45,910 bases of DNA from a candidate division WOR-3 bacterium (GCA_039802145.1 JBDRWA010000001.1:1-45910), one strand, 5' to 3'. Positions 59-38,665 are shown, counted from the stretch's first letter. The notes: generated by a model not told the origin, from the letters alone. Made by a program: numbers and translations.

Positions 59-1648
59 ATGCTTTTATGTGTAGTTCTATTCTTTACCTCAGCTGTTATG
101 AGTTCTGAATTAAGAATGCAACTGGAGAATCTACAAGATAAAGAAATAATCACGGTGATTGTTTTGATGAATGCTGAATATCCTTTTGACGCAGTGGAGA
201 ATTTTCCTATAAAAGAGAAGGCACAAATTTTTAGAGAAATTGCACGCGGGAGTCAACAAACTCTCGTTAATTTTCTTAAGCAATTTCCAGAAGGGGTCAA
301 CGAGATAAAACAATACTGGGTCTTCAACGGTATGCATATCACTGCAACAAAGAAAGTGATAGAGCACCTTGTCAACAGGGATGATGTGAAATATATACTA
401 CACAATGGGATAATTGAACTTCCGAACGAAGGAAAAAATTCAGATATAAGGACAACCGAATGGAATATCAAGAAGATTATGGCTGATTCCTGCTGGAATG
501 CAGGTTATACTGGGGAAAATGTATTAATTGGTATTCTTGATACGGGATGTGATTTTACGCATCCTGCTTTATCTGGCAAATGGAGTGGATACTGGCGGGA
601 TTGTGTAAACGGTCAGACACAGCCCTATGATGATAATGGTCATGGCATATTTATGAGTGGTATTATCTGCGGCGGTGATGGATTTGGACCATTTGTTGAT
701 GATATTGGTGTAGCACCCGGGTCAAAATTAGTTGTTGCAAAGGTTTTTAATTCCCAGGGTGCGGGGCAATATACCTGGATAGATGAAGGAATGCAATGGA
801 TCGCAGATTTGAAGGTTGATTCAGGTGTTGATATTCGTGCTGTTTCTAATTCGTGGGGTAGTAATACATACGAACTTCACTTCTGGAATATCTGTCTTAC
901 CTGGAAATCAATCGGTATTTTAGGAATATGGTCAATTGGTTCAAGTGGACCAGGACAGGGAACCTGTACTGCACCAGGAAACTATCCTCTTGTCTTGGGC
1001 TGTGGGGCAACTGATTCATTTGATAATATTGCTTCATTTTCATCTCGTGGTCCTGCACCAGACCAGCCACCCTGGAATGATACAATCTACTGGCTTAGAA
1101 GAGACTGGAATTTGACCAAACCGGACATTGTTGCACCAGGGGTCAGTATTAGATCGAGTTCTAGTAATGGTGGGTACATGACAATGAGTGGAACATCTTT
1201 GGCAAATTCTCATGTTGCAGGTGGTGTTGCAATATTATGCCAGGCAAATCCCAACCTTACTGTAACGCAATTATACAATCTTTTTCTTAACAATGCCGAT
1301 TCAATTTATTATGGTGGTTATCCTAATAATACCTATGGCTGGGGAAGACTGAATCTCTGGCAGACGCTTCAATCAGTACCGGGGATAAAGGAGAATAATA
1401 AATTCAAAGTTGTAGAAAATATAATAATTATGCCAAATCCATTCAGCGGGCAATTGAAATTAACCAACCTGCCTGATGGTTGTAATATCTCTTTATATAA
1501 TGCGATTGGCAGAAAGGTTTATATTTGCATAAGTGATAAGGGAACAATAGTTATTGCTTTGCCAGTTTCTATAAGAAATGGTGTTTATTTTCTTGAAGTT
1601 AAAACAAAATCAGACCTGATTGTACGGAAGGTTACGCTATTGAGATAA
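59..1648 (+). CDS. Secreted subtilisin-family (S8) peptidase with I9-like propeptide and T9SS C-terminal sorting domain
   Basis: 529-aa ORF with hydrophobic N-terminus MLLCVVLFFTSAVMS. S8 triad motifs are GILDTGCD (Asp), DDNGHGIF (His) and MSGTSLANSHVAGG (Ser). The C-terminus MPNPFSG...LYNAIGRKV...GVYFLEV...VTLLR fits the T9SS tail pattern. AAAGGA lies 6 nt upstream of the ATG. The oxyanion position reads GSSG instead of GNxG. Confidence 0.85.
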   Translation: MLLCVVLFFTSAVMSSELRMQLENLQDKEIITVIVLMNAEYPFDAVENFPIKEKAQIFREIARGSQQTLVNFLKQFPEGVNEIKQYWVFNGMHITATKKVIEHLVNRDDVKYILHNGIIELPNEGKNSDIRTTEWNIKKIMADSCWNAGYTGENVLIGILDTGCDFTHPALSGKWSGYWRDCVNGQTQPYDDNGHGIFMSGIICGGDGFGPFVDDIGVAPGSKLVVAKVFNSQGAGQYTWIDEGMQWIADLKVDSGVDIRAVSNSWGSNTYELHFWNICLTWKSIGILGIWSIGSSGPGQGTCTAPGNYPLVLGCGATDSFDNIASFSSRGPAPDQPPWNDTIYWLRRDWNLTKPDIVAPGVSIRSSSSNGGYMTMSGTSLANSHVAGGVAILCQANPNLTVTQLYNLFLNNADSIYYGGYPNNTYGWGRLNLWQTLQSVPGIKENNKFKVVENIIIMPNPFSGQLKLTNLPDGCNISLYNAIGRKVYICISDKGTIVIALPVSIRNGVYFLEVKTKSDLIVRKVTLLR

Positions 1649-18867: not shown

Positions 18868-21102
18868 CTATCCAACCATCAAGCCATCCAACAATCCCTT
18901 CACTTCTTGTGAATCCGGAATTATCTTCAAGACTTTTTGTAGTATTTTTCGTGCATCATTTTTGTTCCCGTGTTCAAGGCAGCTCTTGGCAAAATTTATC
19001 GCCTCAGTCTCAAGCTGCGTTAAAATCTTAAATCTCATGTCCACTGACCAGTTATCAAAATTCTTCTTAAACGGCTCACCGCGGAATAACTTGAATGCCC
19101 GTAAGTATTCTTTGCGAGCGATACCCCACTCCCCTGCCCGCTCCAGTGCCTTTGCCCGGGCTAAAGTTTGTCCAAATTCCTGATAGTCGGTGGTAAAATA
19201 AATGTTTTGATTGATTAGATAAGATTCCCCGTTCTGTCTTTTTATCTCTAAATAATGGGCAGGAATTTTAAGAGCCCTTTTTATTCGGACTAAACTGTGG
19301 GAGAAAATCCTTGCTGGATTCTTACTTTTTGACCAGAAATTTTCGTAGAGTTCATTTAAATTCAATGATTTTTCTGGTTCATTGATTCTGGTGATAATAA
19401 ACAAAAGTATTGCACTATCCTTTGGCGAAAGATGGAATTTGTGATATCTTTGATTGCGGAAAATGGTTATTTTGCCTAATAAATTTATATGGTAAACATC
19501 GGTTTTTGTATTAAATATCGGCAGGCGCAGAATTGCCTTAGGTAGATAAGTTGGTTTATTCTTTGCAATCCTTTTCTGAACAAAATCGGGGTAGAAGAAT
19601 AGATAACGATAAAAATAAAACAGGATGCCTTTCCTGACGGCAAACTGATATGCCCCCATATAACCCCTGTTTTTTAATACCCAGGCAAGTTTGATTGTAG
19701 ATAATTTGAAAAATTCTTTATTTTGTGGAATTTTTTGCAGGAGGATGTTGGTAATCAACAACTGCCTTTTCATATTTCTTTTTTTCAAAAATTTCTTCAA
19801 GTTAGCCAATAATGACTTTGCTTTTTCTTCCTCCCCAAAACACATATATGCACTTGCCATTGCCAGATAGGCATTGTTGATATCGGTCAGAAGTCCTGCT
19901 CCTTTTGAGGCATTTAGGGCATTCTGTGCTAAGATAAATGCCTCTGATGGTCTACCTTCAATCAAGGCAAAAAGGGACCGGAATCTTGATAACTGGGCAT
20001 CTTTTGCCCAATCATAAATTTCTGCTTCATTTATAAGTTTCAATGCAGTATTTTTATCGCACCTCAATAAATGAACATAAATCGCAAGCAGCGTCTTCAA
20101 CCTTTTCTTTCTTTGCTCGTCAATACCTTCAAGGGATTTGAGAAGCAGTTTTTCTGCAGTATTATAATCTTCAAGGTCTATGAACTGGACCGCAAGGTCA
20201 TAGAGGAATTCATAAAATGGACTTTTGTGTTGTGATACAAGATGATAGCAATGACGGGCAAGACGGAATGCTTCAGTCAATTTTAACATTTGCACCAGGG
20301 TGTGGCATTTTGAAATAAGTAAGGTAAAACGAATTGGCATTAAATCTTTTGCTTTTCTATCATTGTCAGGTAGAGATTTTTCAATTTTTTCTGTCCATCT
20401 CTTTTGTTCTTCAGGATTGCCAAGCCAGGATAATGCAACAAGCAAAGCCATACCAATTCTTAATGCCGAATAATTCCACTCATTCTTGATAGATTTTTTA
20501 TAGAGTATTTTTGCTTTTTTGATATATTCCGACAATGGGATTTTGCCGAATTCCATTGTCAATCTTTCAATCTTGCGCCTTGTATTCAAGAGTTTTTCCG
20601 GTAATTTTAAAACTAATTCATTCTTTGGTAGCGGGGGTAAGGAATTTAAAATTATCGCTGATTCTTTCATTTTGCCATCATTAAATAGCCGCTCTGCATC
20701 TTCTAACTTTAACTTTGTTTCCTGAGAAGGAATAATGAATTCGGTAAAGTCATTGCAAATGTTCAAACGATCAAAGCCAGAATATCCATATCTTTTCCAG
20801 ATATTCCATATTCCACGGCTGGTGATTTTTATTTTCTTCTTGAGCAATACCCTCCGTGTCTGTTCCAGCGTGAGCCAGGGATATTTTTCTTTATACTTTA
20901 TGACGAAATTTTCAATATACTTTGGGGAGCGATTCCAGGGTTTAAAAAGCGGTTGTGTTTTAAATTTTTTAAAATACTTCAACCATTTATAAACCGTCTG
21001 ATAATGGAGATTAAATTTTTTTGCGGTCTTTCTGATTGAAGATTTATTTTTAAAATATTCGTCAATGACCCCATAAAATAATTCTCTTTGTTTGTTATGC
21101 AT
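18868..21102 (-). CDS. Paralogous large regulator: paired HTH, TPR-like, winged-helix + BTAD
   Basis: 744 aa, collinear with 14635..16878. By manual count, 90 of 100 aligned residues are identical across the BTAD region starting at IYFTTDYQEF (ten residues before the C-terminus), and the rest is much more diverged. Confidence 0.7.
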   Translation of the reverse strand: MHNKQRELFYGVIDEYFKNKSSIRKTAKKFNLHYQTVYKWLKYFKKFKTQPLFKPWNRSPKYIENFVIKYKEKYPWLTLEQTRRVLLKKKIKITSRGIWNIWKRYGYSGFDRLNICNDFTEFIIPSQETKLKLEDAERLFNDGKMKESAIILNSLPPLPKNELVLKLPEKLLNTRRKIERLTMEFGKIPLSEYIKKAKILYKKSIKNEWNYSALRIGMALLVALSWLGNPEEQKRWTEKIEKSLPDNDRKAKDLMPIRFTLLISKCHTLVQMLKLTEAFRLARHCYHLVSQHKSPFYEFLYDLAVQFIDLEDYNTAEKLLLKSLEGIDEQRKKRLKTLLAIYVHLLRCDKNTALKLINEAEIYDWAKDAQLSRFRSLFALIEGRPSEAFILAQNALNASKGAGLLTDINNAYLAMASAYMCFGEEEKAKSLLANLKKFLKKRNMKRQLLITNILLQKIPQNKEFFKLSTIKLAWVLKNRGYMGAYQFAVRKGILFYFYRYLFFYPDFVQKRIAKNKPTYLPKAILRLPIFNTKTDVYHINLLGKITIFRNQRYHKFHLSPKDSAILLFIITRINEPEKSLNLNELYENFWSKSKNPARIFSHSLVRIKRALKIPAHYLEIKRQNGESYLINQNIYFTTDYQEFGQTLARAKALERAGEWGIARKEYLRAFKLFRGEPFKKNFDNWSVDMRFKILTQLETEAINFAKSCLEHGNKNDARKILQKVLKIIPDSQEVKGLLDGLMVG

Positions 21103-21140: not shown

Positions 21141-21248
21141 GTAATTATAATATGTATCGCTGTAACCAGTAATTAACTATTGCGATTGTGTTGTGTGTGG
21201 TTAATTTGGGACACATTTATATGTAAATATTTAGAGAAAGGGGGTATT

Positions 21249-23573
21249 ATGAAAATTGGAATTTGGTTTGGTATGTTCTTAATCGTTTCTTTTGTTCATT
21301 CAGCTAACCTCCCCTGGACCTGGCAGAATCCATTACCTGAAGGTAATGAATACACTGATGTCTGTGTAATCAACGAAAATATTATTTTTGTTGTTGAAGA
21401 AGAGGCAGGAACCATTTTAAAGACGACAAATGGTGGCTTGGCCTGGGATGTAAGTTTCACACCTTATCCTGATTCCCAGCCTGGTTATTATGAACTTTAT
21501 GGTATTGATTTTCCTGATTCGCTAACTGGCTATGCAGTCGGTAATTTCTGGGGTTCAAACTGGAATACAACATATCATGCTGTAATTTTAAAAACCACAA
21601 ACCAGGGTGCAACCTGGACATTCCAGTATCTTGGCGCACAGAATACCTGGCTTATGGATGTTGATTTTCCGCAGGGAAATAATCAGGTCGGATATGCAGT
21701 AGGGAGAAATGGAATGATATTAAAAACGACAAATGGTGGGCAGAGTTGGGTTCAGCAAAATTCTGGCACAACCTATGAATTGCTTGCAGTACATTTTCCC
21801 GTTGATGCAAATACTGGATATGTTGTTGGTGGGAATAGAACTACAACCCCGGTAATCTTAAAAACAACAAACGGTGGTTCCAACTGGAATAGCCAGACAA
21901 GTCCAGCAAATGTGACTTACTGGGATGTGTGTTTTATTGATAATCAGAACGGTTATGCAGGGGGGTATACATTAGGTAGTGGTGGCAATGGTACAATTAT
22001 TAAAACAACCAATGGAGGTAGTACGTGGCAACAGATATGGTATCAACAATACCGTGAAATTTATTCAGTACATTTTTTGAATGCCCAGGTCGGGTATGCC
22101 GGTGGTTGGGCACACTCAAATTCGGGCTGGAGTGGAAGTTTCATTATGAAAACAACAAACGAAGGTAGTAGCTGGACTCCAGTCTTTCTTCCGAAATTTA
22201 TGACCTATGTTTTACCGATTGGTTTTGCCAATACACTGACTGGTTATGCTGCAGGATATGTCTATGACCAGAATGGTGGCCATGGCCAACTTTTGAAAAC
22301 TACGGATGCGGGCACATCCTGGATTTTCTTAAATACAGGTCCTGAAGGAATTTTTTGGGCTGTTGATTTTCCGGAGAGCGACCAAATTGGTTATGCGGTT
22401 GGCGATGCAGGATATATATACAAGACAACTGATGGAGGTGCAACCTGGGTACAGCAAACAACAGGAACCGGGCAGGTATTCTATGATGTTGATTTTCTTG
22501 ATAATCAACTCGGTTTTGCAGTTGGTGCTAATGGAACATTTTTCAAGACAACAAACGGTGGTAATGTCTGGACTCCAAAAAATGCAAATACTACAGCCAC
22601 CCTGTATGCAGTGAAATTCATAAATTCGCAAATTGGTTACATTGCTGGACTGGGAAGTACTGGTGGAGTGATAATGAAGTCTACGGATGGAGGTGATAAC
22701 TGGATAAGTCAGACCATCCCTAACAATAATACTTATCGGGCAATTCAGGATTTATTTTTCTTTAATGCGGATACTGGTTATGCAGTTGCGGGTGCCACAC
22801 CTTCTTATGGTGGTGCAGTTGGACTTGTATATAAAACCACTAATGGTGGTCAGACCTGGGTTGAAAACTATGCACCATCTTCAGCAAATTTCTATGCCAT
22901 AGATTTTCCAGAAAATTCACAGGTTGGTTATATTTCAGGTTTAATGGGAGGTACCGGGACTTATAAAATGATAAAGACAACCAATGGGGGCAATTCCTGG
23001 ACAGGACAAAGCCTGGGGGGTGGTATTGTTCCCGCTGTTGGTGTATCCTTTGCAGATAATCTCATTGGTTATGCGGTATTCAGACCTGGTGGATACCATA
23101 TGATGATGAAGACAACGAATGGTGGTTCAAACTGGTTTGCTATCAATTCTCTGACCTGGCACGGTTATGAGGATATCCAGGCGATCAATGCAAATGTCGT
23201 TTATGCAGTTGGCAGGGGCGGAATGATCCGCAAGACAACAAATGGTGGAAGCGTTTGGATTGAGGAAGAAAAAGGTGATGGAGATATAAAGGTGGATAAT
23301 CATTATCAAAGTTTGTGGGTCTATCCTAATCCATTCAGGAACAATGTCCATATCAGATGCAGGATGCATGATACAGGATACATGATAAAGATATACGATG
23401 TTTCGGGACGTGTTGTAAAATCTTTCAATCTTGAATCCTGTATCCTGAATCATGAATCCAGTATCACCTGGTTCGGCGATGATAAGCTGGGACGTGAATT
23501 GCCTGCAGGTGTTTATTTTATCGTGCCTGAGGATAAAAGTTCGTCGCCCGTGCGGGTGGTGAAGATAAGATAA
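21249..23573 (+). CDS. Secreted BNR/Ycf48-like double beta-propeller protein with T9SS C-terminal sorting domain
   Basis: I prefer the start at ATG 21249 (AAGGGGG SD, then signal-like MKIGIWFGMFLIVSFVHSA) over the track start 21180. There are 14 repeats of the (I/L)xKTTNGGxxW motif. Tail NPFRNN...IKIYDVSGR...LPAGVYFIV...VVKIR. Confidence 0.85.
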   Translation: MKIGIWFGMFLIVSFVHSANLPWTWQNPLPEGNEYTDVCVINENIIFVVEEEAGTILKTTNGGLAWDVSFTPYPDSQPGYYELYGIDFPDSLTGYAVGNFWGSNWNTTYHAVILKTTNQGATWTFQYLGAQNTWLMDVDFPQGNNQVGYAVGRNGMILKTTNGGQSWVQQNSGTTYELLAVHFPVDANTGYVVGGNRTTTPVILKTTNGGSNWNSQTSPANVTYWDVCFIDNQNGYAGGYTLGSGGNGTIIKTTNGGSTWQQIWYQQYREIYSVHFLNAQVGYAGGWAHSNSGWSGSFIMKTTNEGSSWTPVFLPKFMTYVLPIGFANTLTGYAAGYVYDQNGGHGQLLKTTDAGTSWIFLNTGPEGIFWAVDFPESDQIGYAVGDAGYIYKTTDGGATWVQQTTGTGQVFYDVDFLDNQLGFAVGANGTFFKTTNGGNVWTPKNANTTATLYAVKFINSQIGYIAGLGSTGGVIMKSTDGGDNWISQTIPNNNTYRAIQDLFFFNADTGYAVAGATPSYGGAVGLVYKTTNGGQTWVENYAPSSANFYAIDFPENSQVGYISGLMGGTGTYKMIKTTNGGNSWTGQSLGGGIVPAVGVSFADNLIGYAVFRPGGYHMMMKTTNGGSNWFAINSLTWHGYEDIQAINANVVYAVGRGGMIRKTTNGGSVWIEEEKGDGDIKVDNHYQSLWVYPNPFRNNVHIRCRMHDTGYMIKIYDVSGRVVKSFNLESCILNHESSITWFGDDKLGRELPAGVYFIVPEDKSSSPVRVVKIR
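23354..23394 (+). repeat. In-frame 7-nt-phased array in T9SS tail, loop 1 (CAGGATG/CATGATA/CAGGATA/CATGATA/AAGATAT)
   Basis: Units read directly; they encode RCRMHDTGYMIKI just before the IYDVSGR strand. Confidence 0.75.
23432..23466 (+). repeat. In-frame 7-nt tandem array in T9SS tail, loop 2 (TGAATCC/TGTATCC/TGAATCA/TGAATCC/AGTATCA)
   Basis: Five contiguous heptamers read directly; they encode LESCILNHESSI. Confidence 0.8.
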
Positions 23574-23905: not shown

Positions 23906-26900
23906 ATGTTTAATTTGTTGCTTGCGTTTCTTTTTGTAGCAAGGCCAGTGATACCGGGTAAGATGACTCCGGAACTGGCGCAGATTCTGCATAATACATC
24001 AGATAACGAAAAGATACTCGTTATCGTCCATATGGCTACAGAATATCCTTATGACCAGCTTCGGGGAATGACACCGGTTGAAAAGTGCAAGGTATTTGAG
24101 AATATTGCCTTCAATTCCCAGCGTGAAATTGTTGAATATTTAAAGTCACTCCCTGACGAGTTTGCTGAAGTCGGTGGTCAATTCTGGATATTCAATGGAT
24201 TCCATTTAAAAGCAACAAAGGCATTAATCTATGAACTTGCCAAGCGTGATGATATCTGGTTTATCTGCCACAATGGGATAGTAAAACTTGATGCTGATGT
24301 TCTGCCTGAAGCAGATATTACTGGTCGTGCTCCAGAATGGAACATCAAGAAAATAAAGGCGGATTCTTGCTGGGCAGAGGGTTATTCTGGTTCAGGGATA
24401 ATTCTTGGTCATATTGATACCGGCGTATTAACTACCCATGAGGCACTTACCGGTAAATGGCTCTCTCCTTACTGGATTGATGGTGTGAGTGGACAGGCTA
24501 ATCCTTATGACGACCATGGACATGGGACTCATACTATGGGGACTATCTGTGGTGGTGATGGCCCTGGTCCGTTTGCGAATGATGTTGGTGTTGCATATGG
24601 TGCCCGGTATATTCCAACCAAGGCATTTGATTCTGGTGGTTCAGGACAGTATGCCTGGATCGATACCTGTATGCAATATCTGGCGAGATTGAAGTCTCAA
24701 GGTGTTGATATCCGGGCGATTGGTAATTCCTGGGGCAGTTCGGGTCAGACCGATTTACACTGGTGGGATATAATTCTGAACTGGAAAAATCTTGATGTAT
24801 TTCCTGTATTCTCCCAGGGGAATAGTGGTCCAAATTCAGGAACGGCAAATGCACCAGGAAATTATCCCACTGCAATAGGTGTTGGTGCAACCGATTCACT
24901 TGATGTGATTGCAAGTTTCTCGTCCCGTGGCCCTGCACCAAATCAAAGTCCCTGGAATGATCCACAATACTGGTATTATCCTACCTGGAATCTTTTAAAA
25001 CCCGATGTCTCTGCCCCGGGTGTCGCAGTCCGTTCTTCATATAATAATGGTGGATACACATCTATGCAGGGAACTTCTATGGCATCACCCCATGTCACCG
25101 GCGGAACTGCAATTCTCCTTGAGAAAAATTCCACTCTTACTCCTGACCAGTTATTCGAAATCTTTTATACCACCTGTGACCAGCCATCAGGTGGAGGTCC
25201 CTATCCTAACAATAACTATGGCTGGGGTAGAATAAATCTCTATCGTGCATTACAACAGACACCGCCGCCAACTCCTCACCATAATATTCGTGTTCAGACA
25301 ATAGTTGTCCCTGGAACAAGGGAGCGTGAATATACTGTTATCCAACCCCAGGTTCGTTTTAAGAATGCAGGAACCTTTGATGAAAACAATATCCCTGTGG
25401 TATGCCAGATAAAGAGGGGCACGACAACCGTTTATACCAGCAACCGCACGATTGGTTCACTCCTTCAGAATAAGGATACACTGATAACTTTTGATAATTT
25501 CACAGTTGGTTCCTGTGGCAATCATTATACTGCTTTTGGCATAGCCAACCTTTCAACCGATACTCTCCATTATGATGACACATTGAAAAAGAATTTTGTT
25601 GCAGCAAGGGTCTATGAAGTCACAACGCCGGATTGTGATGCCTGGAAGATTGCTAATGCGGACTCTGGAACTCCACCCGCGCCAACGAATCCTGCTTGGA
25701 TTCCTGCCACAACAACCGAGAAACAGCAGATCTCTGCACTTGATAATCAGTGGTGGGTAACGGCAGGCTCTCCACAAGATACCACACATATGGATGTGCA
25801 GTTATATGGATTCCGATTGACCGGAGTTCCTGATACCGCCATTGAGGAGATGACCCTTGAGTGGTGGGGTCATCATGGAAGTGGCGTGCGGGACCAGTTA
25901 AGATTTAGGCTTTGGAACACCCTGACGAGTTCCTATTCATTAAAGATTACCCAACAGAATGTCACTTCAGATCAATTATTCAGCATAATTATTCCTGACG
26001 ATTCTGCTGAAGCCTATGTGGGTAATGATGGTTTCTTATATGCCTGTGTGGCGAATGATGTCTATATCAAATCTTCCTGTCCATTGCTCTTTACTCATAA
26101 TAAAAACAAGAGTTACTTCATCGGCGACATTGTAACTGGTGGAGATATTGGAACCTGGATTGGTCGGGTAATGGGTGTGAATCTTTATGCACCACCTGAC
26201 TACGACGAATATGTAAAGATTGATGGCGAAAAATTGCAAGCGGTGAATGGGAAATATCACCTCAGTATAAATGAGATGCTCCAGGAAATCAGTTATATTG
26301 ATGAAGTAACACTGTATGCAGTTGACCACCCTGCTGGAAGTGATATTTATCCTCATGAGGCACTCCTCTGGCCCGGTTATCAAGGGTTGAAAATTTTCAA
26401 TGGTTATGAAAAGCCGATTTACAAGGTATTCAATGAAAAGGGTCAGGATATTACTGATTATCTAAATGCAATTGATAGGAATTTTGCTCCATTTGAATTA
26501 ACAGGACTTGTGGGATTTGCCAAGCCTTTCACAATTACACTTGACCTTGGGGAATTGAATGATCCGGATAATACAGTCCTTTGCCTCTATGGTAGCACAC
26601 GTTTTCCTGATGCGGGAAAGATTAAGGAAGTGAGTGATATCTACGAGGCCTACAAAAAGGGCATGAAGGTTCAAAATCCGACTGTTGAAGTTTATAATAA
26701 CGGCAAGTGGCAGAAGATCAAATCCTGCGGTATGCCTGCGGGTCATAAAAAGGTAGTTACCTATCCGCTCTTTGATGAAAATGGTAAGTCAATCTTCAAA
26801 GGCAAAGACTATAAACTAAGAATTACATTCTACCATGAAGTTTATCTTGATAAAATCTGGATTACCACAGATACAGATAACAATTATCGCATTGCGGCAC

Positions 26901-27970
26901 TTTCGCCCATTTCTGCGGACTTGCACTTCTACGGCAATTCTGCTTATGTCTCAGACGATGGTAGATATCCGGGTGAGTTTGATTATGCTAATAAGATTCA
27001 AGTTGATTATGCCCAGGCAGCAGGATACTACACCCGTTACGGTGATGTCCTAACATTACTACAAGAAGGAGATAATAAATTTGTAATAATGAAATCCGGA
27101 GACGAGATAAAACTTACATTTGATGCTCAAGAACTACCGCCATTACCAGACGGCTGGAAACGAGACTTCATCTTCGCAACAAAAGGATTCTATAAGGCGA
27201 TTAGACCTGGCCGTGCCTATGCTTACTCTGTAGATCCATTACCTTTCTACGGAATGCGCGCAGATTTATCTGCAAATGGTGTTGGTTATTATCCTTATGA
27301 CCCAGCACCGGGACTATTCGGTTCACTGATCGGAAGAATTTATGCAAGGATTGCCTGGGGTTATCCATTTTCACTTAAAGATGCGATTACACTGATTAAA
27401 AACCATATTACGAATAAGGTGAATAATAAATATCCTGCAGAACTTACCGAATACTGCCAGTTATGGAATACGAGAAGGGTAGAAGGTTATTATCCTGCCT
27501 ATTATGCGAATTTCTTACCGCATAAGAACCTTGAGAAAGTGCCTTTAACCGAAAGAGAAGGCAAATGGCCTATGCACCTTGCCTCGCTGGGAATTCCATT
27601 CGGACCGCATTCATTATACAGCAACTATGTCCGCCTCTGGATGGTGACACATAATCCACTCGTTGTAGTTGAGGAGAAACCTGCAAATCAAGCAAAGGGA
27701 TTTTCATTTATTGCCCTTCAGAATCCGTTCCGCAATATCGCTAAATTCGAATACAATCTGCCAGTGAATACAAAGGTCAATATAAGCGTATATGATAATA
27801 CAGGAAGACTGGTGCGTCGTCTCGTAGATGCAAAACAGGATAGAGGCAGTTATCAACTGGAATGGTCGGGCGATGATGAGCAGGGTAGAAAGTTGTCGAC
27901 TGGAGTCTACTTTGTAAGATTTGAGACCGACCAGACGAACACGGTCCAGAAGGTGATAATGCTGAAATAA
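23906..27970 (+). CDS. Giant secreted S8 peptidase: I9-like propeptide, complete S8 catalytic set, ~800-aa uncharacterised extension, T9SS C-terminal sorting domain
   Basis: I prefer the start at ATG 23906 (GGAGG 5 nt upstream) over the track TTG at 23888. Motifs: GHIDTGV (Asp), DDHGHGTHTMG (His), SQGNSGP (oxyanion Asn), MQGTSMASPHVTGG (Ser). Tail QNPFRNIAKF...VYDNTGRLV...GVYFVRF...VIMLK. Confidence 0.88.
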   Translation: MFNLLLAFLFVARPVIPGKMTPELAQILHNTSDNEKILVIVHMATEYPYDQLRGMTPVEKCKVFENIAFNSQREIVEYLKSLPDEFAEVGGQFWIFNGFHLKATKALIYELAKRDDIWFICHNGIVKLDADVLPEADITGRAPEWNIKKIKADSCWAEGYSGSGIILGHIDTGVLTTHEALTGKWLSPYWIDGVSGQANPYDDHGHGTHTMGTICGGDGPGPFANDVGVAYGARYIPTKAFDSGGSGQYAWIDTCMQYLARLKSQGVDIRAIGNSWGSSGQTDLHWWDIILNWKNLDVFPVFSQGNSGPNSGTANAPGNYPTAIGVGATDSLDVIASFSSRGPAPNQSPWNDPQYWYYPTWNLLKPDVSAPGVAVRSSYNNGGYTSMQGTSMASPHVTGGTAILLEKNSTLTPDQLFEIFYTTCDQPSGGGPYPNNNYGWGRINLYRALQQTPPPTPHHNIRVQTIVVPGTREREYTVIQPQVRFKNAGTFDENNIPVVCQIKRGTTTVYTSNRTIGSLLQNKDTLITFDNFTVGSCGNHYTAFGIANLSTDTLHYDDTLKKNFVAARVYEVTTPDCDAWKIANADSGTPPAPTNPAWIPATTTEKQQISALDNQWWVTAGSPQDTTHMDVQLYGFRLTGVPDTAIEEMTLEWWGHHGSGVRDQLRFRLWNTLTSSYSLKITQQNVTSDQLFSIIIPDDSAEAYVGNDGFLYACVANDVYIKSSCPLLFTHNKNKSYFIGDIVTGGDIGTWIGRVMGVNLYAPPDYDEYVKIDGEKLQAVNGKYHLSINEMLQEISYIDEVTLYAVDHPAGSDIYPHEALLWPGYQGLKIFNGYEKPIYKVFNEKGQDITDYLNAIDRNFAPFELTGLVGFAKPFTITLDLGELNDPDNTVLCLYGSTRFPDAGKIKEVSDIYEAYKKGMKVQNPTVEVYNNGKWQKIKSCGMPAGHKKVVTYPLFDENGKSIFKGKDYKLRITFYHEVYLDKIWITTDTDNNYRIAALSPISADLHFYGNSAYVSDDGRYPGEFDYANKIQVDYAQAAGYYTRYGDVLTLLQEGDNKFVIMKSGDEIKLTFDAQELPPLPDGWKRDFIFATKGFYKAIRPGRAYAYSVDPLPFYGMRADLSANGVGYYPYDPAPGLFGSLIGRIYARIAWGYPFSLKDAITLIKNHITNKVNNKYPAELTEYCQLWNTRRVEGYYPAYYANFLPHKNLEKVPLTEREGKWPMHLASLGIPFGPHSLYSNYVRLWMVTHNPLVVVEEKPANQAKGFSFIALQNPFRNIAKFEYNLPVNTKVNISVYDNTGRLVRRLVDAKQDRGSYQLEWSGDDEQGRKLSTGVYFVRFETDQTNTVQKVIMLK

Positions 27971-27976
27971 GAAAGC

Positions 27977-28005
27977 CAAGGGGGCAGGATTTGCCTGCCC
28001 CCTTG
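27977..28005 (+). terminator. 12-bp GC-rich hairpin (CAAGGGGGCAGG-atttg-CCTGCCCCCTTG)
   Basis: Perfect stem beginning 7 nt after the stop codon. No T-tract follows (an A-run does). Confidence 0.55.
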
Positions 28006-28114
28006 AAAAATTAAATAATAAAATACGCTATTTATTGATTGTTGCATTCCACCACAGGCAGAAAAGATATATTACGCCAACCGGATAAATAGAAGAATGA
28101 GATTTTAAAAAAAT

Positions 28115-29320
28115 ATGAAATCAATAAGTAAGATTTGCTTGTTTTATAAAGGCAGGTCAAATTTTTTAAAAGAATTTTTTTACCTTTTTAATAAGGGTGG
28201 GATAAAATCTACTATTTCTTGTCTGCGACTATTCAAGACCGCATTAAATAACGAAAAGATAAATAAATTTAACGATAAAGCAGTCCTTTTCTTTCTCATT
28301 CCACCTATCCCGTCAGAGAGTTTTAGACGCCATTTAAGGCATTATTCAAACAAATTTATTTTGCGAAACGGAAATAGTTTCTTTGGACAGGCATTCATCG
28401 CGGTCAATCGCAAATGTCCGTTCAATTGCTGGTATTGTAGTGCAGGCAACACGCAGGATAATGAATTGAGTTTAGAAGAACTGGATGGAGTTATTTCGCT
28501 GTTTAAAGACTGGGGTGCAAGCACAATTGTCTTTACCGGTGGTGAACCACTTTTGAGGGATGATATAGATATTTTGATCTCAAAATATCATGAAGATCTG
28601 TCATTTGTTATATTGACTTCTGGTTATGGATTGAGTGTAAAAAGGGCAAAAAGACTGAAAGATAACGGTTTGTTTTCAATTTCTATCAGCCTCGATCACT
28701 TTGACCCTAAAATCAATGACCGGTCAAGGGGTAGGGAAGGGGCATTTGACATTGCCCTTGATGCCATAAAGAATGCCAAGAGTGCTGGATTGTATACAGT
28801 CGTCCAGACCGTAGCAACAAGCGAATTGTTAAGGGATGGAGAGACAGAAAGATTCATAGACTTTGTAAAAAATTTAGATGTTGATGAATTATTCCTCCTT
28901 GAACCGCTCTGCACTGGAAGATTGTTTAGTAAAGAAAGAGATATTTATTTGAATGGCGAAGAGGCAGAAAAATTGAAATTATTACATATCCAATCAGCGA
29001 AAAAGAAAAACGGTTTGAAGATTATTACATCCCCATTCATTGAAGATACTACAAAATTTGGCTGTGGTGCTGGTACCCAGCATATCTATGTTGATACGAG
29101 TGGCGATCTCTGGCCCTGCAATTTTCTCCCTGTATCATTGGGGAATCTCTTAAGAGAACCTGAGGCTGTGAAGATAAGACTTAAGAAATATTTCAGTAAA
29201 CCATGTGGTTTCTGTATTCTAAAGAAGTACCACAAAGAATTATTAAAGTATTATGATAATGGATTACCTATAAAGTTTGAATGCATAGAAAAGATATTAG
29301 AAAAGATGGATAAATCCTGA
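28115..29320 (+). CDS. Radical SAM enzyme with C-terminal SPASM/twitch-like Cys cluster
   Basis: 401 aa with CPFNCWYC (CxxxCxxC) after a ~95-aa N-terminal extension. GGEPLL motif. The C-terminus GCGAGTQHIYVDTSGDLWPCNF...PCGFC resembles a partial SPASM domain. Confidence 0.8.
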   Translation: MKSISKICLFYKGRSNFLKEFFYLFNKGGIKSTISCLRLFKTALNNEKINKFNDKAVLFFLIPPIPSESFRRHLRHYSNKFILRNGNSFFGQAFIAVNRKCPFNCWYCSAGNTQDNELSLEELDGVISLFKDWGASTIVFTGGEPLLRDDIDILISKYHEDLSFVILTSGYGLSVKRAKRLKDNGLFSISISLDHFDPKINDRSRGREGAFDIALDAIKNAKSAGLYTVVQTVATSELLRDGETERFIDFVKNLDVDELFLLEPLCTGRLFSKERDIYLNGEEAEKLKLLHIQSAKKKNGLKIITSPFIEDTTKFGCGAGTQHIYVDTSGDLWPCNFLPVSLGNLLREPEAVKIRLKKYFSKPCGFCILKKYHKELLKYYDNGLPIKFECIEKILEKMDKS

Positions 29321-29348
29321 GACATTTATCCTTATAATAGAAGGAGGT

Positions 29349-32156
29349 ATGATGGTAGGTAGTGCATTAATCTTAGTCTTTACGCTGCTACCACAGATTC
29401 CAGGTAAGTTGACCCCGGAACTTTTAGAAATACTTAATCGCTCTTCACCCGGTGAAAAAATCTTTGTCATTGTCCATATGAGTACTGAATACCCATATGC
29501 TGAGATTGAAAACTTGCATCCTCAGGAAAAATGTAAAATCTTTGAGCAGGTTGCCAGAAATTCCCAGAAGGATATTATCAATTATCTTAAAAGATTGCCC
29601 GTAGAAAAGGCAGAAGTCCTTAAGCAGTTCTGGATTTTTAATGGCTTCCATCTGAAGGCAACGAAGCATATAATCTATGAACTCGCCAAACGTGATGATA
29701 TCTGGTTTATCTGCCATAACGGAATAATAAAACTTGATGATGAGGTTTTGTCAGAATCGGATATTACAGGGCGTACGCCAGGGTGGAATATTATAAAGAT
29801 AAAAACGGATTCCTGCTGGCTTGCTGGATATAGCGGTGCAGGTGTTATTGTTGGACACATTGATACAGGAGTTATGATAGACCACCCTGCCCTTGAAGGG
29901 AAATGGTTATTACCTTACTGGTATGATGCGGTGAATTTTTACCCTAGACCGTATGATGATCATGGACATGGCACTTTTACAATGGGCACTCTATGCGGTG
30001 GTGATGGCTTTGGACCATTCGGTGAAGATGTCGGTGTTGCCTTTGGTGTAAAATATATTGCAACCAAGGCATTTGATTCTCATGGCTCTGGACAATATGC
30101 TTGGATAGATGCCTGTATGCAGTATCTTGCAGATTTGAAGGCACAGGGTGTGAACATTTGTATAATAAATAATTCATGGGGATCTGCCAATGGCTCGGAT
30201 TTACACTGGTGGAATCTCATTCTCACCTGGAAAAATTTAGAAATCTTTGCCGTTTTTGGCACAGGAAGTAGCGGTCCTGGTTCAGGGACGGTTGTTTCAC
30301 CGGCAAGTTATCCCCTTGTCGCCGGAATCGGTGCCACCGATTCCAGTGATAACATAACGAGTTTCTCTTCCCGTGGTCCAGCACCGAACATCTCACCGAT
30401 AAATGACCCTCAATACTGGTTTTACCCGACCTGGAATTTGTTAAAACCAGATTTCTCAGCCCCCGGGCAAAATATTCGTTCATGCTACAATAATGGTGGT
30501 TATGCTAATTCCACAGGGTCAGGAATAACCACGCCCCATGTTGCTGGTGGTGCGGCGATTTTGTTAGAAAAAAATCCGGAACTTACGGTTAATGATATCT
30601 ATGATTTTTTCCGAATTTACTGTGACCAGCCTCCGCAGGGCGCACCGTATCCAAACAATAATTATGGTTGGGGCAGGGTTAATCTCTGGCGCTCTTTACA
30701 AAACATTCCGCCTTTGAATATGCCCAACATTGTTCTCGCCAATGCTTCAGTCGTTAATGACAACAATAGCAATGGTAAACTTGACCCTGGTGAAGATGCA
30801 GGAATTGTTTGTTATTTGAAAAACAGCGGGGGCGTGCAGGCGAGTAATGTCCAGGCAATTTTAAGGACAACATCTAATTATGTTATAATTTACGATTCAA
30901 CATATTTTTATGGCACAATCAGTTCCGGAGATACGGTTGAAAATACATCAGAACCATTTGTGTTAAGTGTATTAGATTCAACACCGCCAGGGCACATTTC
31001 AATTTTCCAATTAACAATCACCTCTGCCGAGACAACTTGGACAAGAAGTTTTTATAAAACGGTCGGTATCGCTCCAGGAACGATTATCTGGGGTCCTAAG
31101 ACACTGCCCAATTTTCCTACAAGCGGAATTGTCTATGGTATTTCCTATGATGCAGCGGATGATAAAATATATGTAGTAGACTTTAATTCACCTCAGATCT
31201 ATTGTTACTCATCGGATAGTTTTGTTACTTACTATGGGACAATTCCTGCGCCAGAAGATAGTCTCACTGACATCACCTATAGCCCTTATGATGATGCATT
31301 GTATGTGATTGGGCTCAATCCTAAAATTGTGTGGAAGATTGATAAGACGACTGGTGCAATACTCCGTCAATTTGATAATCCGGCAATTGACTATCCTGTC
31401 GGTATAGTTTTAAAACCGCATGATACACTATGGTTTGCGGATCGAAGGACTGCTCTTGGTACACCCCAGTTGCTTTATATTGGTGATACATTAGGAAATG
31501 CCAATCAATATAATAACCCGGTCCAGGGATATTACAACTCGCGGTGCCTCGCCTATGACGCGATTGGTAATTCATTTATTCAAGCCCATACATGGTATGA
31601 TTCTCATGGAAACAATTTGGATAGTGCTGGTGTTGTTGAAATAAAAGGTGAACCACCCATGTTGACATCAAATCTTATGCTGTTAAATCCAGCTTGGCAT
31701 ATAAGGGGTGTAGAATTTGACCCGCGGGATGGCAATTACTGGGTTACCATTGCCCAGGTTGGTGGCAGTTTTCCTGTAAGATGGATTGTAAAAGTGAGGG
31801 GTTTTTATACACCGACAACCGCGATTAAAGAAAGAAAAGTCTTCCAGACACAAAAAGGACTTTTAAATATTGTGCCGAATCCATTCCAGAATCACTGCGT
31901 TATTAAATTTCAAATTCCAAGCACCAAATCCCATAATCCAAACGGAAATGTAGGGCAAGGCTTCAGCCTTGCGATATACGATGTAACCGGTAGAATGGTT
32001 AGAGATTTTTCTTGGCTGACGGTAAACGGTGAACGGTCAACGGTTTTCTGGGATGGTTGTGATGATTCTGGTCGCAATTTGCCTGCAGGTGTTTATTTTG
32101 TTAGGTTAGATGTGGATGATTTCAAAAAAGTGGAAAAGGTTATATTTTTAAGATGA
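29349..32156 (+). CDS. S8-like paralogue with substituted nucleophile (probable pseudo-peptidase), NHL/beta-propeller-like region and T9SS C-terminal sorting domain
   Basis: 935 aa, collinear with the 23906 gene through the S8 domain with no gaps around the active site. Asp (GHIDTGV) and His (DDHGHGTFTMG) are kept, but GTSMASPHV is replaced by GSGITTPHV and the oxyanion GNSG by GSSG. Tail PNPFQNH...IYDVTGRMV...LPAGVYFVRL...VIFLR. The gene starts 28 nt after the radical SAM gene. Confidence 0.85.
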   Translation: MMVGSALILVFTLLPQIPGKLTPELLEILNRSSPGEKIFVIVHMSTEYPYAEIENLHPQEKCKIFEQVARNSQKDIINYLKRLPVEKAEVLKQFWIFNGFHLKATKHIIYELAKRDDIWFICHNGIIKLDDEVLSESDITGRTPGWNIIKIKTDSCWLAGYSGAGVIVGHIDTGVMIDHPALEGKWLLPYWYDAVNFYPRPYDDHGHGTFTMGTLCGGDGFGPFGEDVGVAFGVKYIATKAFDSHGSGQYAWIDACMQYLADLKAQGVNICIINNSWGSANGSDLHWWNLILTWKNLEIFAVFGTGSSGPGSGTVVSPASYPLVAGIGATDSSDNITSFSSRGPAPNISPINDPQYWFYPTWNLLKPDFSAPGQNIRSCYNNGGYANSTGSGITTPHVAGGAAILLEKNPELTVNDIYDFFRIYCDQPPQGAPYPNNNYGWGRVNLWRSLQNIPPLNMPNIVLANASVVNDNNSNGKLDPGEDAGIVCYLKNSGGVQASNVQAILRTTSNYVIIYDSTYFYGTISSGDTVENTSEPFVLSVLDSTPPGHISIFQLTITSAETTWTRSFYKTVGIAPGTIIWGPKTLPNFPTSGIVYGISYDAADDKIYVVDFNSPQIYCYSSDSFVTYYGTIPAPEDSLTDITYSPYDDALYVIGLNPKIVWKIDKTTGAILRQFDNPAIDYPVGIVLKPHDTLWFADRRTALGTPQLLYIGDTLGNANQYNNPVQGYYNSRCLAYDAIGNSFIQAHTWYDSHGNNLDSAGVVEIKGEPPMLTSNLMLLNPAWHIRGVEFDPRDGNYWVTIAQVGGSFPVRWIVKVRGFYTPTTAIKERKVFQTQKGLLNIVPNPFQNHCVIKFQIPSTKSHNPNGNVGQGFSLAIYDVTGRMVRDFSWLTVNGERSTVFWDGCDDSGRNLPAGVYFVRLDVDDFKKVEKVIFLR
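31905..31939 (+). repeat. In-frame 7-nt tandem array in T9SS tail, loop 1 (AAATTTC/AAATTCC/AAGCACC/AAATCCC/ATAATCC)
   Basis: Units read directly; they encode KFQIPSTKSHNP. The unit family resembles the arrays at 32335..32383. Confidence 0.75.
31947..31972 (+). repeat. Coding copy of the 26-nt palindromic element (AATGTAGGGCAAGGCTTCAGCCTTGC)
   Basis: 25/26 identical to intergenic 18773..18798. Translated in frame as NVGQGFSLA. Confidence 0.8.
32019..32046 (+). repeat. In-frame 7-nt tandem array in T9SS tail, loop 2 (ACGGTAA/ACGGTGA/ACGGTCA/ACGGTTT)
   Basis: Four contiguous heptamers. The first three differ only at position 6, and position 6 runs A, G, C, T across all four. They encode LTVNGERSTV. 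Confidence 0.85.
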
Positions 32157-32237: not shown

Positions 32238-32268
32238 CGATATAGGCTGCGAAGCTGTATAACGACGA
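32238..32268. repeat. 31-nt imperfect direct repeat, copy 1 (CGATATAGGCTGCGAAGCTGTATAACGACGA)
   Basis: 27/31 identical to 32834..32864 by manual alignment. Confidence 0.7.
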
Positions 32269-32409: not shown

Positions 32410-32479
32410 AAATCCGCATTTCGCAATCCGAAATTCAAAATGCCTTTTTCCCGTTCCGCAATTCGCAAAACGAAATTTC
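32410..32479 (+). repeat. 7-nt tandem array (AAATCCG/CATTTCG/CAATCCG/AAATTCA/AAATGCC/.../CAATTCG/CAAAACG/AAATTTC)
   Basis: About ten units with conserved ..A..CG phase, read directly. Confidence 0.7.
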
Positions 32480-32517
32480 ATTAAAGATTTATGATGTTGC
32501 GGGTCGGGTAATGAAAT

Positions 32518-32549
32518 CATTTAACCATTTAACCAATTTTTCATTTAAC
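32518..32549 (+). repeat. 8-nt tandem array in orphan tail, loop 2 (CATTTAAC/CATTTAAC/CAATTTTT/CATTTAAC)
   Basis: Read directly; it encodes HLTNFSFN at the same loop as the heptamer arrays in the intact paralogues. Confidence 0.75.
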
Positions 32550-32670
32550 CAGATTGTTTGGGACGCTTTTGATGATTCCGGTCGTAAACTTCCTGCAGGT
32601 GTTTATTTTGTGCGGCTGGAGACGGGTGAATTCAGTATGGTGAAGAAGGTGATATTTTTAAGATAGGGGA

Positions 32671-32833: not shown

Positions 32834-32864
32834 CGATACAGGCTGCGAAGTCGTAAAACGACGA
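32834..32864. repeat. 31-nt imperfect direct repeat, copy 2 (CGATACAGGCTGCGAAGTCGTAAAACGACGA)
   Basis: 27/31 identical to 32238..32268. Confidence 0.7.
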
Positions 32865-35384: not shown

Positions 35385-35412
35385 TTGACAAATCTGTCAT
35401 TTCGGTTATAAT
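35385..35412 (+). promoter_or_regulatory. Consensus sigma70 promoter (TTGACA-16-TATAAT) for the tRNA and downstream operon
   Basis: -35 at 35385..35390, -10 at 35407..35412. The tRNA 5' end lies 15 nt downstream. Confidence 0.7.
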
Positions 35413-35427
35413 AAACTATATTTATAA

Positions 35428-35500
35428 GGCGGCGTAGCTCAGTTGGCAGAGCAGGAGAATCATAATCTCTGTGTCGGGGGTTCGACTCCCTCCGCCGCTA
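35428..35500 (+). tRNA. tRNA with CAU anticodon (elongator Met, or Ile2 if lysidinylated); CCA not encoded
   Basis: Hand-folded cloverleaf. Acceptor GGCGGCG/CGCCGCT (G1-U72 wobble), U8, D arm GCTC-AGTTGGCA-GAGC, anticodon arm GGAGA-ATCATAA-TCTCT, T arm GGGGG-TTCGACT-CCCTC, discriminator A. It lacks the three G-C pairs and the 1-72 mismatch of an initiator. Confidence 0.9.
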
Positions 35501-38655: not shown

Positions 38656-38665
38656 AGGGGGTAAT

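Follow-up and report, generated by a model that had tools for sequence, protein, structure and literature searches.

What does a radical S-adenosylmethionine (SAM) enzyme do when its gene lies between those of two secreted subtilases, one of which has lost its catalytic nucleophile? The question is raised by a 45,910-nucleotide (nt) stretch of DNA from a candidate division WOR-3 bacterium (GCA_039802145.1 JBDRWA010000001.1:1-45910; the whole stretch is called the window below), in which genes for an S8-family protease (S8#1), a radical SAM enzyme (rSAM) and a second S8 protein (S8#2) follow one another on the same strand. An earlier note on this DNA had singled out positions 23906-32156 as a candidate protein- or peptide-maturation cluster, and had suggested that rSAM might modify S8#2 in the way that the anaerobic sulfatase-maturating enzyme, anSME, acts on sulfatases. 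All of the genes it described are there, at or near the places it had them: S8#1 with the residues of an active protease, rSAM, and S8#2 with its Ser substituted. Its boundaries enclose these three genes but leave outside the conserved partner of rSAM, a downstream gene for a β-ketoacyl-acyl carrier protein (ACP) synthase III (KAS III; Table 1). The reading that we favour, with modest confidence, is that the region is composite, an old S8#1-rSAM-KAS III block with a recent S8#2 insert, and that rSAM and KAS III act as a lipid or small-molecule module.

Table 1. Features of the locus, with the basis on which each was assigned (ORF, open reading frame; aa, amino acids; T9SS, type IX secretion system; AF2, AlphaFold2).
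Feature	Coordinates	Strand	Basis
S8#1 subtilase	23906..27970 (ORF opens 23888)	+	Pfam/NCBIfam matches, catalytic residues present
GC-rich hairpin, 13 bp	27976..28006		Sequence and terminator-like scan
Radical SAM enzyme (rSAM)	28115..29320	+	Pfam, NCBIfam, family alignments, AF2 model
S8#2 pseudo-protease	29349..32156	+	Peptidase_S8, T9SS tail, catalytic Ser to Gly
Orphan T9SS C-terminal-domain fragment	32460..32665	+	Por_Secre_tail, 27.8 bits, E = 3e-6
FabH-like KAS III, 342 aa	32925..33953	+	Pfam ACP_syn_III and ACP_syn_III_C
B12-binding radical SAM protein, 470 aa	33897..35309	-	Pfam B12-binding and Radical_SAM

Results

rSAM and KAS III behave as a functional unit

We compared the gene contexts of rSAM homologues at 90%, 73%, 64%, 49% and 45% identity, together with 80 genome loci of the best rSAM relatives and 18 metagenome loci anchored on the middle region of S8#1. 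Within the WOR-3 clade, a KAS III gene adjoins or overlaps the rSAM gene in every locus with downstream sequence, and in five independent loci (L003, L008, L091, L093 and L094) the overlap is 4 nt. One locus (L006:359-4975; JGI 3300028823 Ga0310067_1000488) carries a tandem rSAM-KASIII-rSAM-KASIII array right after the tail of an S8#1-type gene, and the other lineages hold one or the other of the two cassette types. When pairwise-identity matrices for rSAM, KAS III and S8 were computed over 13 loci, the rSAM matrix correlated with that of KAS III at r = 0.96 and with that of S8 at 0.78. The S8 proteins of L093 and L094 are 93% identical, whereas their rSAMs share 42% and their KAS IIIs 50% identity, which means that different rSAM-KAS III cassettes stand behind the same protease. 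The pair is also kept in L012, where there is no S8 gene at all. rSAM and KAS III behave as a functional unit that is commonly translationally coupled, and the tightly coupled cassette is specific to WOR-3 and Hydrothermae. We know of no characterised equivalent, and the literature searches that we made found no description of either this rSAM family or an rSAM-KAS III pair.

The KAS III gene starts at a TTG codon after a GGAGG site, a position that was placed by comparison with L001. The protein resembles FabH and the KAS III initiation ketosynthases, a group that takes in primer-specific enzymes of secondary fatty-acid and polyketide pathways, in having both KAS III Pfam domains, in the motifs of the Cys-His-Asn triad that can be read in its sequence (NACNSF, GHQ and GNTGAAS) and in its nearest PDB relatives, which are true FabHs (E = 1e-43). 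It differs in scoring below the cutoffs of the NCBIfam FabH models (217.7 bits against 249 and 199.5 against 292), in lying outside a fab operon, and in being tied to rSAM and duplicated with it. It is nearer to true FabHs than to BioZ, OleA or PqsD. A BioZ-like enzyme, which would have mirrored the BioC-like methyltransferases found beside rSAM in the wider family, was considered and rejected, FabH being the closer match (1e-43 vs 1e-28).

S8#2 was inserted recently between rSAM and KAS III

S8#2 (935 aa) starts 28 nt past the rSAM stop codon, behind a GAAGGAGG ribosome-binding site; as had been proposed, co-transcription with rSAM is likely in this genome. Its layout is an S8 domain (Peptidase_S8, PF00082; E = 3.7e-34, 118.8 bits), a beta-propeller-like region and a T9SS C-terminal domain (TIGR04183, type A; 26.9 bits against a cutoff of 23). 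It is 60% identical to S8#1 across the first ~460 residues, and TIGR04183 is above cutoff for both, which upholds their description as paralogous, T9SS-sorted proteins. The catalytic Asp, His and Asn are kept, and the GTSMASPH motif has become GSGITTPH, so that Gly stands in place of the nucleophilic Ser. By these residues S8#2 would not be an active subtilase, though the fold is kept.

Besides the window, S8#2 was seen after rSAM in L109/L110 alone, where rSAM is 98% identical to the one described here. It is missing from this position in all other related loci, about 20 in number; no S8#2 lies between rSAM and KAS III in L001, L002, L003, L006, L008, L012, L013 or L059, nor in L091-L095, L097, L098 or L102-L106. 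S8#2 is one of a family of ~915-aa proteins, found throughout WOR-3, in which an S8 domain is joined to a beta-propeller and a T9SS tail. Two members, P0122 (from the same metagenome as L005) and P0127 (from the same metagenome-assembled genome (MAG) as L109), sit in unrelated contexts with no rSAM nearby. Because S8#2 is missing from the related loci and its homologues are found elsewhere, we regard its adjacency to rSAM as recent and lineage-specific. Most members of the family retain the triad and the GTSMASPH motif. In the subclade nearest S8#2, Ser has changed to Thr in P0122 and P0129, Asp has changed to Gly in P0128 and the whole triad is lost in P0124; this independent loss of different catalytic residues argues for relaxed constraint.

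The recent insertion between the rSAM and KAS III genes comprises ~3.6 kb and carries both S8#2 and an orphan T9SS tail. The orphan tail has no protein body upstream and lies between the S8#2 and KAS III genes. Its final 111 nt and the end of S8#2 form direct repeat D1 (32044-32154 and 32554-32664; 77% identity), and a matching 77-aa ORF is present in L109. It is flanked by a 31-nt direct repeat (87% identical; CGATAYAGGCTGCGAAG..GTA.AACGACGA) at 32238-32268 and 32834-32864, the second copy of which falls within a ~75-nt stretch that is missing from L001, just upstream of the KAS III promoter-like site. It could be the scar of an insertion, or a small element that is repeated here.

The insert is probably transcribed along with rSAM. 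Modification of the co-transcribed S8#2 by rSAM, on the model of anSME and sulfatases, might be read from the 28-nt gap and the good ribosome-binding site, which make co-transcription likely here, and from the loss of the nucleophile. We consider it extremely improbable: S8#2 is found at this position in one species-level lineage only and its homologues elsewhere have no rSAM, the distribution of rSAM far exceeds that of S8#2, and close relatives of S8#2 decay in differing ways, which fits pseudogenisation and not a new conserved role. As a conserved function, modification of S8#2 is effectively excluded by the absence of S8#2 from the other loci. S8#2 is an operon passenger and not a substrate of rSAM, and the locus is probably not a maturation system for this dead protease.

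S8#1 is frequently linked to the pair but dispensable

The block that is conserved in WOR-3 and Hydrothermae runs in the order S8#1-type protease, rSAM, KAS III; Candidatus Hydrothermus pacificus (L059) provides a Hydrothermae example. Full-length S8#1 orthologues (41-96% identity) lie directly upstream of rSAM in L001, L002, L003, L008, L013, L059, L091-L095, L097, L098 and L102-L106. The adjacency is retained in L008, L059, L098 and L104, where every other flanking gene differs. The gap between the S8#1 and rSAM genes is usually 9-47 nt in other lineages and is 144 nt in the window. Conversely, when loci were anchored on the S8#1 mid-domain, 11-12 of about 14 informative ones had the rSAM-KAS III pair directly downstream, the exceptions being L096 and L099, in which the mid-domain protein is kept without the pair. 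No S8 gene lies upstream of rSAM in L011, where the contig ends at rSAM, or in L012. The linkage of S8#1 to the pair is frequent and real but dispensable. The earlier note had made its case depend on a conserved linkage of this rSAM subfamily with S8 genes in related genomes. Such a linkage was found across WOR-3 and Hydrothermae, with the upstream S8#1; with S8#2 it is confined to one lineage.

S8#1 is 1354-1360 aa long, and its likely start, an ATG at 23906, gives 1354 aa and matches the relatives. The translation shows a hydrophobic, signal-like N-terminus, and the layout is a signal peptide and propeptide, an S8 domain (residues ~168-447), an all-beta region of ~800 aa and a T9SS C-terminal domain (TIGR04183, 34.8 bits). 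The Peptidase_S8 match (E = 7.8e-44, 150.5 bits) includes a complete triad and oxyanion Asn (D177/H212/N280/S397), and with Asp-His-Ser and Asn in an S8 fold the protein is predicted to be an active subtilase. The sorting domain and hydrophobic N-terminus likewise mark both S8#1 and S8#2 as predicted T9SS type A cargo. No Pfam family matched the ~800-aa middle region, which AF2 modelled (predicted local distance difference test score (pLDDT) 78) as stacked tandem beta-sandwiches. A Foldseek search for the identity of this mid-domain was abandoned as a functional clue, having returned only generic matches of the alpha-2-macroglobulin and toxin type at a template modelling (TM) score of ~0.1. 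The second half of the region is homologous to part of CRTAC1/ASPIC-UnbV/FG-GAP extracellular proteins, and invariant Cys, Asp and His positions are present in the mid-domain. This gives the picture of a cell-surface protease and offers no obvious substrate for rSAM.

In the 144-nt spacer that leads to rSAM, the GC-rich hairpin comes directly after the stop codon of S8#1. Its T-run is on the minus strand only, and it is a possible terminator or stabiliser. The spacer holds no plausible small ORF, in agreement with the earlier failure to find a gene for a precursor peptide. A third S8 paralogue (59-1648, + strand, 529 aa), with a complete triad and a T9SS tail and without the long middle region, shares ~50% identity with the S8 domain of S8#1.

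rSAM is predicted to hold a single twitch-type auxiliary cluster

rSAM is a 401-aa protein with a CPFNCWYC motif and a PF04055 match far above the gathering score (E = 4e-27, 95.7 bits against 29.5); its closest homologues (80-98% identity) come from candidate division WOR-3 MAGs. A Cys census that covered 98 family members found C101-x3-C105-x2-C108 invariant, as is T141-G-G-E-P; the first is the CX3CX2C motif for the [4Fe-4S] cluster that cleaves SAM, and the second holds the GGE motif for SAM binding. On the evidence of these motifs, the PF04055 match and the AF2 core folds, it belongs to the radical SAM superfamily. The SPASM (PF13186) match stays below threshold (18.2-20.9 bits against 21.5) and spans the first 37 of the 67 model positions. 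The auxiliary cysteines are C317, C335, C364 and C367. Among the 98 members C317, C335 and C367 are invariant alongside the core triad, and the fourth is clade-specific: C364 is present in 32 of 33 members of the WOR-3 clade, and elsewhere a Cys lies ~30 residues downstream. Four cysteines suffice for one auxiliary cluster of the twitch type, with which the sequence is consistent; the seven cysteines of a two-cluster SPASM domain, arranged as CX9-15GX4C...CX2CX5CX3C...C, are not present. The SPASM/twitch-like Cys cluster first described for this protein is better read as a twitch than as a full SPASM domain.

The N-terminal domain of rSAM, ~95 aa, is family-specific and carries the motif FhPPhPSxxF. 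It had been put forward as a place to look for a PqqD-like fold, the recognition element (RRE) of ribosomally synthesised and post-translationally modified peptide (RiPP) systems, and none is there. A Pfam scan of residues 1-98 gave no family at E <= 10, and the N-terminal profile matches no PDB sequence. In the AF2 model (pLDDT 95.5) a long helix is followed by a beta-hairpin and another helix, unlike the winged helix of an RRE with its three strands and three helices. PDB 8VPO was considered as a homologue of this domain and dropped when the N-terminal-only profile did not recover it.

Foldseek returned core-level matches (TM 0.5-0.6) to SkfB, SuiB, BlsE, viperin, MoaA and anSME, the last at a middling rank (27). 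Since the substrates of these enzymes range from peptides to nucleotides and small molecules, the fold gives no substrate identity. rSAM did not reach the cutoff of any NCBIfam equivalog, the best model being GeoRSP (99 bits against 400). A cofactor-biosynthesis enzyme of the heme, molybdopterin or PQQ pathways was rejected on scores far under the cutoffs (AhbD, 95.3 bits against 500; NirJ2, 94.7 against 500; MoaA, 88.1 against 325; PqqE, 76.9 against 381), and the view that rSAM lies outside the cofactor families holds. A defence system or a prokaryotic viperin was also rejected, since the matches (PADLOC, pVip) were core-level only, at 44 bits. So was a protein modifier of the anSME type, which would call for a full SPASM domain and for conserved co-occurrence with an adjacent sulfatase or a substrate bearing the C/S-x-P-x-R motif; the full SPASM domain is absent and the proposed substrate, S8#2, co-occurs with rSAM in one lineage only.

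Methyltransferases are the typical partners of the wider rSAM family

The rSAM family was found in at least 548 species genomes. Its bacterial members include those of Clostridia (with Sarcina and Lachnospiraceae in the distribution), Planctomycetota, Verrucomicrobiota and the PVC group, Omnitrophota, Desulfobacterota, Spirochaetes, Armatimonadota, Elusimicrobiota and Patescibacteria; the archaeal members include Heimdall-, Bathy- and Nanobdellota archaea, and the distribution takes in Asgard archaea and DPANN. Outside WOR-3 the typical partner is a class I methyltransferase, which neighbours rSAM in 51 of 81 loci and is often joined by a second, small methyltransferase. The first of these is most like BioC (82 bits over nearly the whole model, below the BioC cutoff of 185). 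The 144 operon-like neighbours of family members include 56 methyltransferases, 6 α/β-hydrolases and 2 UbiA prenyltransferases, and S8 peptidases and PqqD domains are both absent from them (0/144). No S8 gene was found beside rSAM in the roughly 70 non-WOR-3 family loci. Fusions of rSAM to a methyltransferase and to a hydrolase exist, and the fusion gene stands alone at its locus. Such fusions suggest a conserved route by which a common substrate is modified in several steps. We found no paper connecting a BioC-like methyltransferase with a radical SAM enzyme.

Some of the non-WOR-3 rSAM-methyltransferase loci add small multi-pass membrane proteins (140-183 aa) or a UbiA-type prenyltransferase (L009/L014/L017/L018/L024/L030 and L060-L082; L058), and in L058:11176-13023 (- strand) a single ORF apparently joins the prenyltransferase to the methyltransferase. 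Such neighbours hint at a membrane-associated substrate.

rSAM departs from each of the known systems that it resembles

The closest likeness is to SkfB, the synthase of the sactionine sporulation killing factor (PDB 6EFN), which was the best match of rSAM both by sequence profile (E = 6e-25) and by fold (Foldseek E = 3e-15, TM ~0.6). The two share a length of ~400 aa, the radical SAM core and a SPASM domain truncated to a twitch, with one auxiliary cluster. They differ in that identity is ~19%, that the NCBIfam SkfB score is far below cutoff, and that the rSAM locus has no gene for a precursor peptide and no RRE-type N-terminal domain; the partners of SkfB are a peptide and an exporter, and those of the rSAM family are KAS III or methyltransferases. 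With no RRE and no ORF in the flanking spacers, rSAM does not qualify as an RRE-bearing RiPP maturase.

The side-by-side genes for a radical SAM enzyme and an S8-family protease had invited a parallel with QhpD/QhpE, the radical SAM/SPASM enzyme and subtilisin-like protease that mature quinohemoprotein amine dehydrogenase, and here the comparison fails. QhpE is a small (~220 aa) cytoplasmic protease, whereas the S8 proteins next to rSAM are 935-1354 aa long and T9SS-secreted; the QhpE model scored 23 bits against a cutoff of 165 and matched only the 59..1648 paralogue. QhpD is a SPASM enzyme, which rSAM in the full sense is not, and was not among the best models for rSAM. No genes for QhpA, QhpB or QhpC were present among the ORFs of the window.

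Hbs/Gms, the bridge synthase of H-shaped glycerol dialkyl glycerol tetraethers (H-GDGT) and glycerol monoalkyl glycerol tetraethers (GMGT), is an AhbD-like SPASM radical SAM enzyme with a ~100-aa N-terminal extension that provides a lipid pocket (bioRxiv 10.1101/2023.10.20.563219). It has been reported in WOR-3, Omnitrophota, Planctomycetota, Asgard archaea and DPANN, often beside a B12-binding radical SAM enzyme, and has 7-8 SPASM cysteines and 36% identity to AhbD (E = 7e-79) (bioRxiv 10.1101/2023.10.20.563219). Its plan is that of rSAM, an extra N-terminal domain of ~100 aa on a SPASM/twitch enzyme; in Hbs/Gms this domain is of the COG4001 type. Measured against the published description, rSAM would fall outside Hbs/Gms, with four auxiliary cysteines and an AhbD score of 95 bits against 500.

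The adjacent and fused partners of the wider family are of the same types as BioC and BioH, the malonyl-ACP O-methyltransferase and α/β-hydrolase esterase of methyl-ester masking. They differ in that the methyltransferase is under the BioC cutoff and no biotin genes are nearby; the WOR-3 clade has KAS III instead.

Other features of the window

The gene for the B12-binding radical SAM protein is convergent with that of KAS III and overlaps its 3' end. No NCBIfam equivalog was reached, HpnJ coming closest (101 bits, with a cutoff of 578). The gene is present in L001-L003, L013, L092, L094, L095, L102 and L103 and absent from L006, L059, L093 and L104, and is probably not a core component, being kept at this position only in closer relatives.

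Upstream of S8#1, two paralogous regulators of ~745 aa with helix-turn-helix (HTH) and tetratricopeptide repeat (TPR) domains (14635-16878 and 18868-21102, both - strand) are nearly identical over their C-terminal ~110 residues, suggesting recent duplication or gene conversion. One HTH-TPR regulator and a BNR/Ycf48-like T9SS protein (21180-23573) also lie upstream of S8#1 in loci of the L001, L002, L003 and L013 types. A tRNA-Met gene (CAT; 35428-35500, + strand), behind a perfect TTGACA-16-TATAAT motif at 35385-35412, sits between the B12-binding radical SAM gene and a gene for an MCPsignal and SBP_bac_5 fusion (35509-38655). It is the only RNA gene, and no riboswitch or other RNA element was found in the spacers. 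A further gene (38630-40846, + strand) encodes a 738-aa, Glu/Lys-rich coiled-coil protein. It accounts for a strong purine skew of this stretch, with GC skew reaching 0.35 and AT skew 0.33, and for an artefactual 394-aa Ser-rich antisense ORF. The window also holds an IS200-like Y1 transposase (13524-14186, + strand; PF01797, E = 2e-14) adjoining a glycosyltransferase like monogalactosyldiacylglycerol synthase, and an 810-aa fusion (2066-4498, - strand) of a multi-pass membrane domain like those of the major facilitator superfamily to a spermine/spermidine synthase-like domain.

Discussion

What, then, might rSAM do? We propose that rSAM and KAS III would work in the cytoplasm as a two-enzyme module for a small molecule of the acyl-thioester or lipid type. 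In this module rSAM would perform radical C-H functionalisation of an unactivated carbon on the primer or the product of a dedicated KAS III. In the wider family the same rSAM would work with BioC-like methyltransferases and α/β-hydrolases, and S8#1 would be an extracellular protease whose linkage to the pair is operon-like but not obligatory. Small-molecule or lipid chemistry is favoured over peptide or protein maturation because of the KAS III partner, the methyltransferase and hydrolase partners in the family, and the lack of an RRE. The position of radical SAM genes beside fatty-acid-synthesis genes is an accepted argument for a lipid-modifying role (PMC13459092), and Hbs/Gms sets a precedent for a ~100-aa N-terminal extension that forms a lipid pocket on a SPASM/twitch enzyme (PMC13459092; bioRxiv 10.1101/2023.10.20.563219).

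Several points weigh against the lipid or small-molecule module. The block contains no ACP gene and no further genes for fatty-acid synthesis or lipids. KAS III-like proteins can serve as acyltransferases, and this KAS III could be the organism's housekeeping FabH. The nearest solved relatives of rSAM include the RiPP maturases SkfB and SuiB, and a peptide substrate is compatible with the fold. The presence of the family in Patescibacteria and DPANN, with their reduced metabolism, implies a widely available substrate and not a specialised lipid. Finally, the adjacency of S8#1 and rSAM lasts down to 37% rSAM identity, with gaps of 9-47 nt, and a lipid module does not explain it.

That adjacency speaks for a different arrangement, a modified form of the second suggestion of the earlier note, in which S8#1, rSAM and KAS III would be a three-component maturation system: rSAM would modify a protein or peptide before export and S8#1 would process the product. 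S8#1 itself might be the target, at its propeptide or its mid-domain, or else a protein or peptide whose gene lies elsewhere; KAS III would possibly serve as an acyltransferase. S8#1 is directly upstream in most WOR-3/Hydrothermae loci despite full turnover of the other flanks, and most loci with its mid-domain (11-12 of about 14) are followed directly by the pair; the invariant Cys, Asp and His of the mid-domain and the rank of SkfB and SuiB among the nearest solved homologues point the same way. We nevertheless consider such a system unlikely. L011 and L012 have no upstream S8 and L012 still has KAS III, L096 and L099 have no pair, and rSAM-KAS III cassettes have been swapped behind nearly identical S8 genes. 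There is neither RRE nor precursor, S8 neighbours are absent from the ~70 non-WOR-3 loci, and in the window a strong hairpin and the 144-nt spacer separate S8#1 from rSAM. That the block is one system in which the secreted T9SS protease, or a protein that it processes, is radical-modified and possibly acylated in the cytoplasm before export seems to us highly unlikely.

Two further accounts concern rSAM and its family. In one, rSAM would act by itself on a ubiquitous substrate (RNA, protein, a cofactor or a nucleotide), and its adjacency to KAS III and S8#1 would be inherited gene order. The rSAM-methyltransferase fusion gene is solitary and without pathway context, the family occurs in the reduced genomes of Patescibacteria and DPANN, and the nucleotide-using MoaA, viperin and BlsE are among the best sequence and fold matches. 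The MoaA (NCBIfam) and pVip (PADLOC) scores are core-level only, however, and the 4-nt overlaps, the tandem co-duplication and the correlation of r = 0.96 are hard to explain without functional coupling, so that a solitary rSAM is not a likely answer. In the other, the family would be, or be sister to, a known radical SAM family that couples lipid tails through C-C bonds, such as Mss, the bacterial membrane-spanning lipid synthase, or Hbs/Gms; membrane-spanning or bridged fatty-acid lipids would then be what the WOR-3 pair makes or modifies. In its spread across taxa the family is much like the published Mss homologues (PMC13159169, PMC11868695), Hbs/Gms, with its N-terminal lipid pocket, has been reported in WOR-3 (bioRxiv 10.1101/2023.10.20.563219), and a B12-binding radical SAM gene is adjacent in close relatives. 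The comparison was with published distributions and descriptions. The 7-8 SPASM cysteines of Hbs and its 36% identity to AhbD stand against four auxiliary cysteines and 95 bits here, the best 80 genome matches include neither Thermotoga nor Thermoanaerobacter, and methyltransferase partners are unmentioned in the Mss paper. We think it quite unlikely.

The analysis removes an attractive but incorrect lead, the pseudo-protease as a substrate of rSAM. Were the whole block one system after all, it would represent a new kind of protein maturation that couples a radical SAM enzyme to a KAS III-type acyltransferase. rSAM itself belongs to a large, uncharacterised family with members in anaerobic bacteria and archaea; if that family is lipid-modifying, it would bear on the sources of unusual bacterial lipids that are used as environmental proxies.

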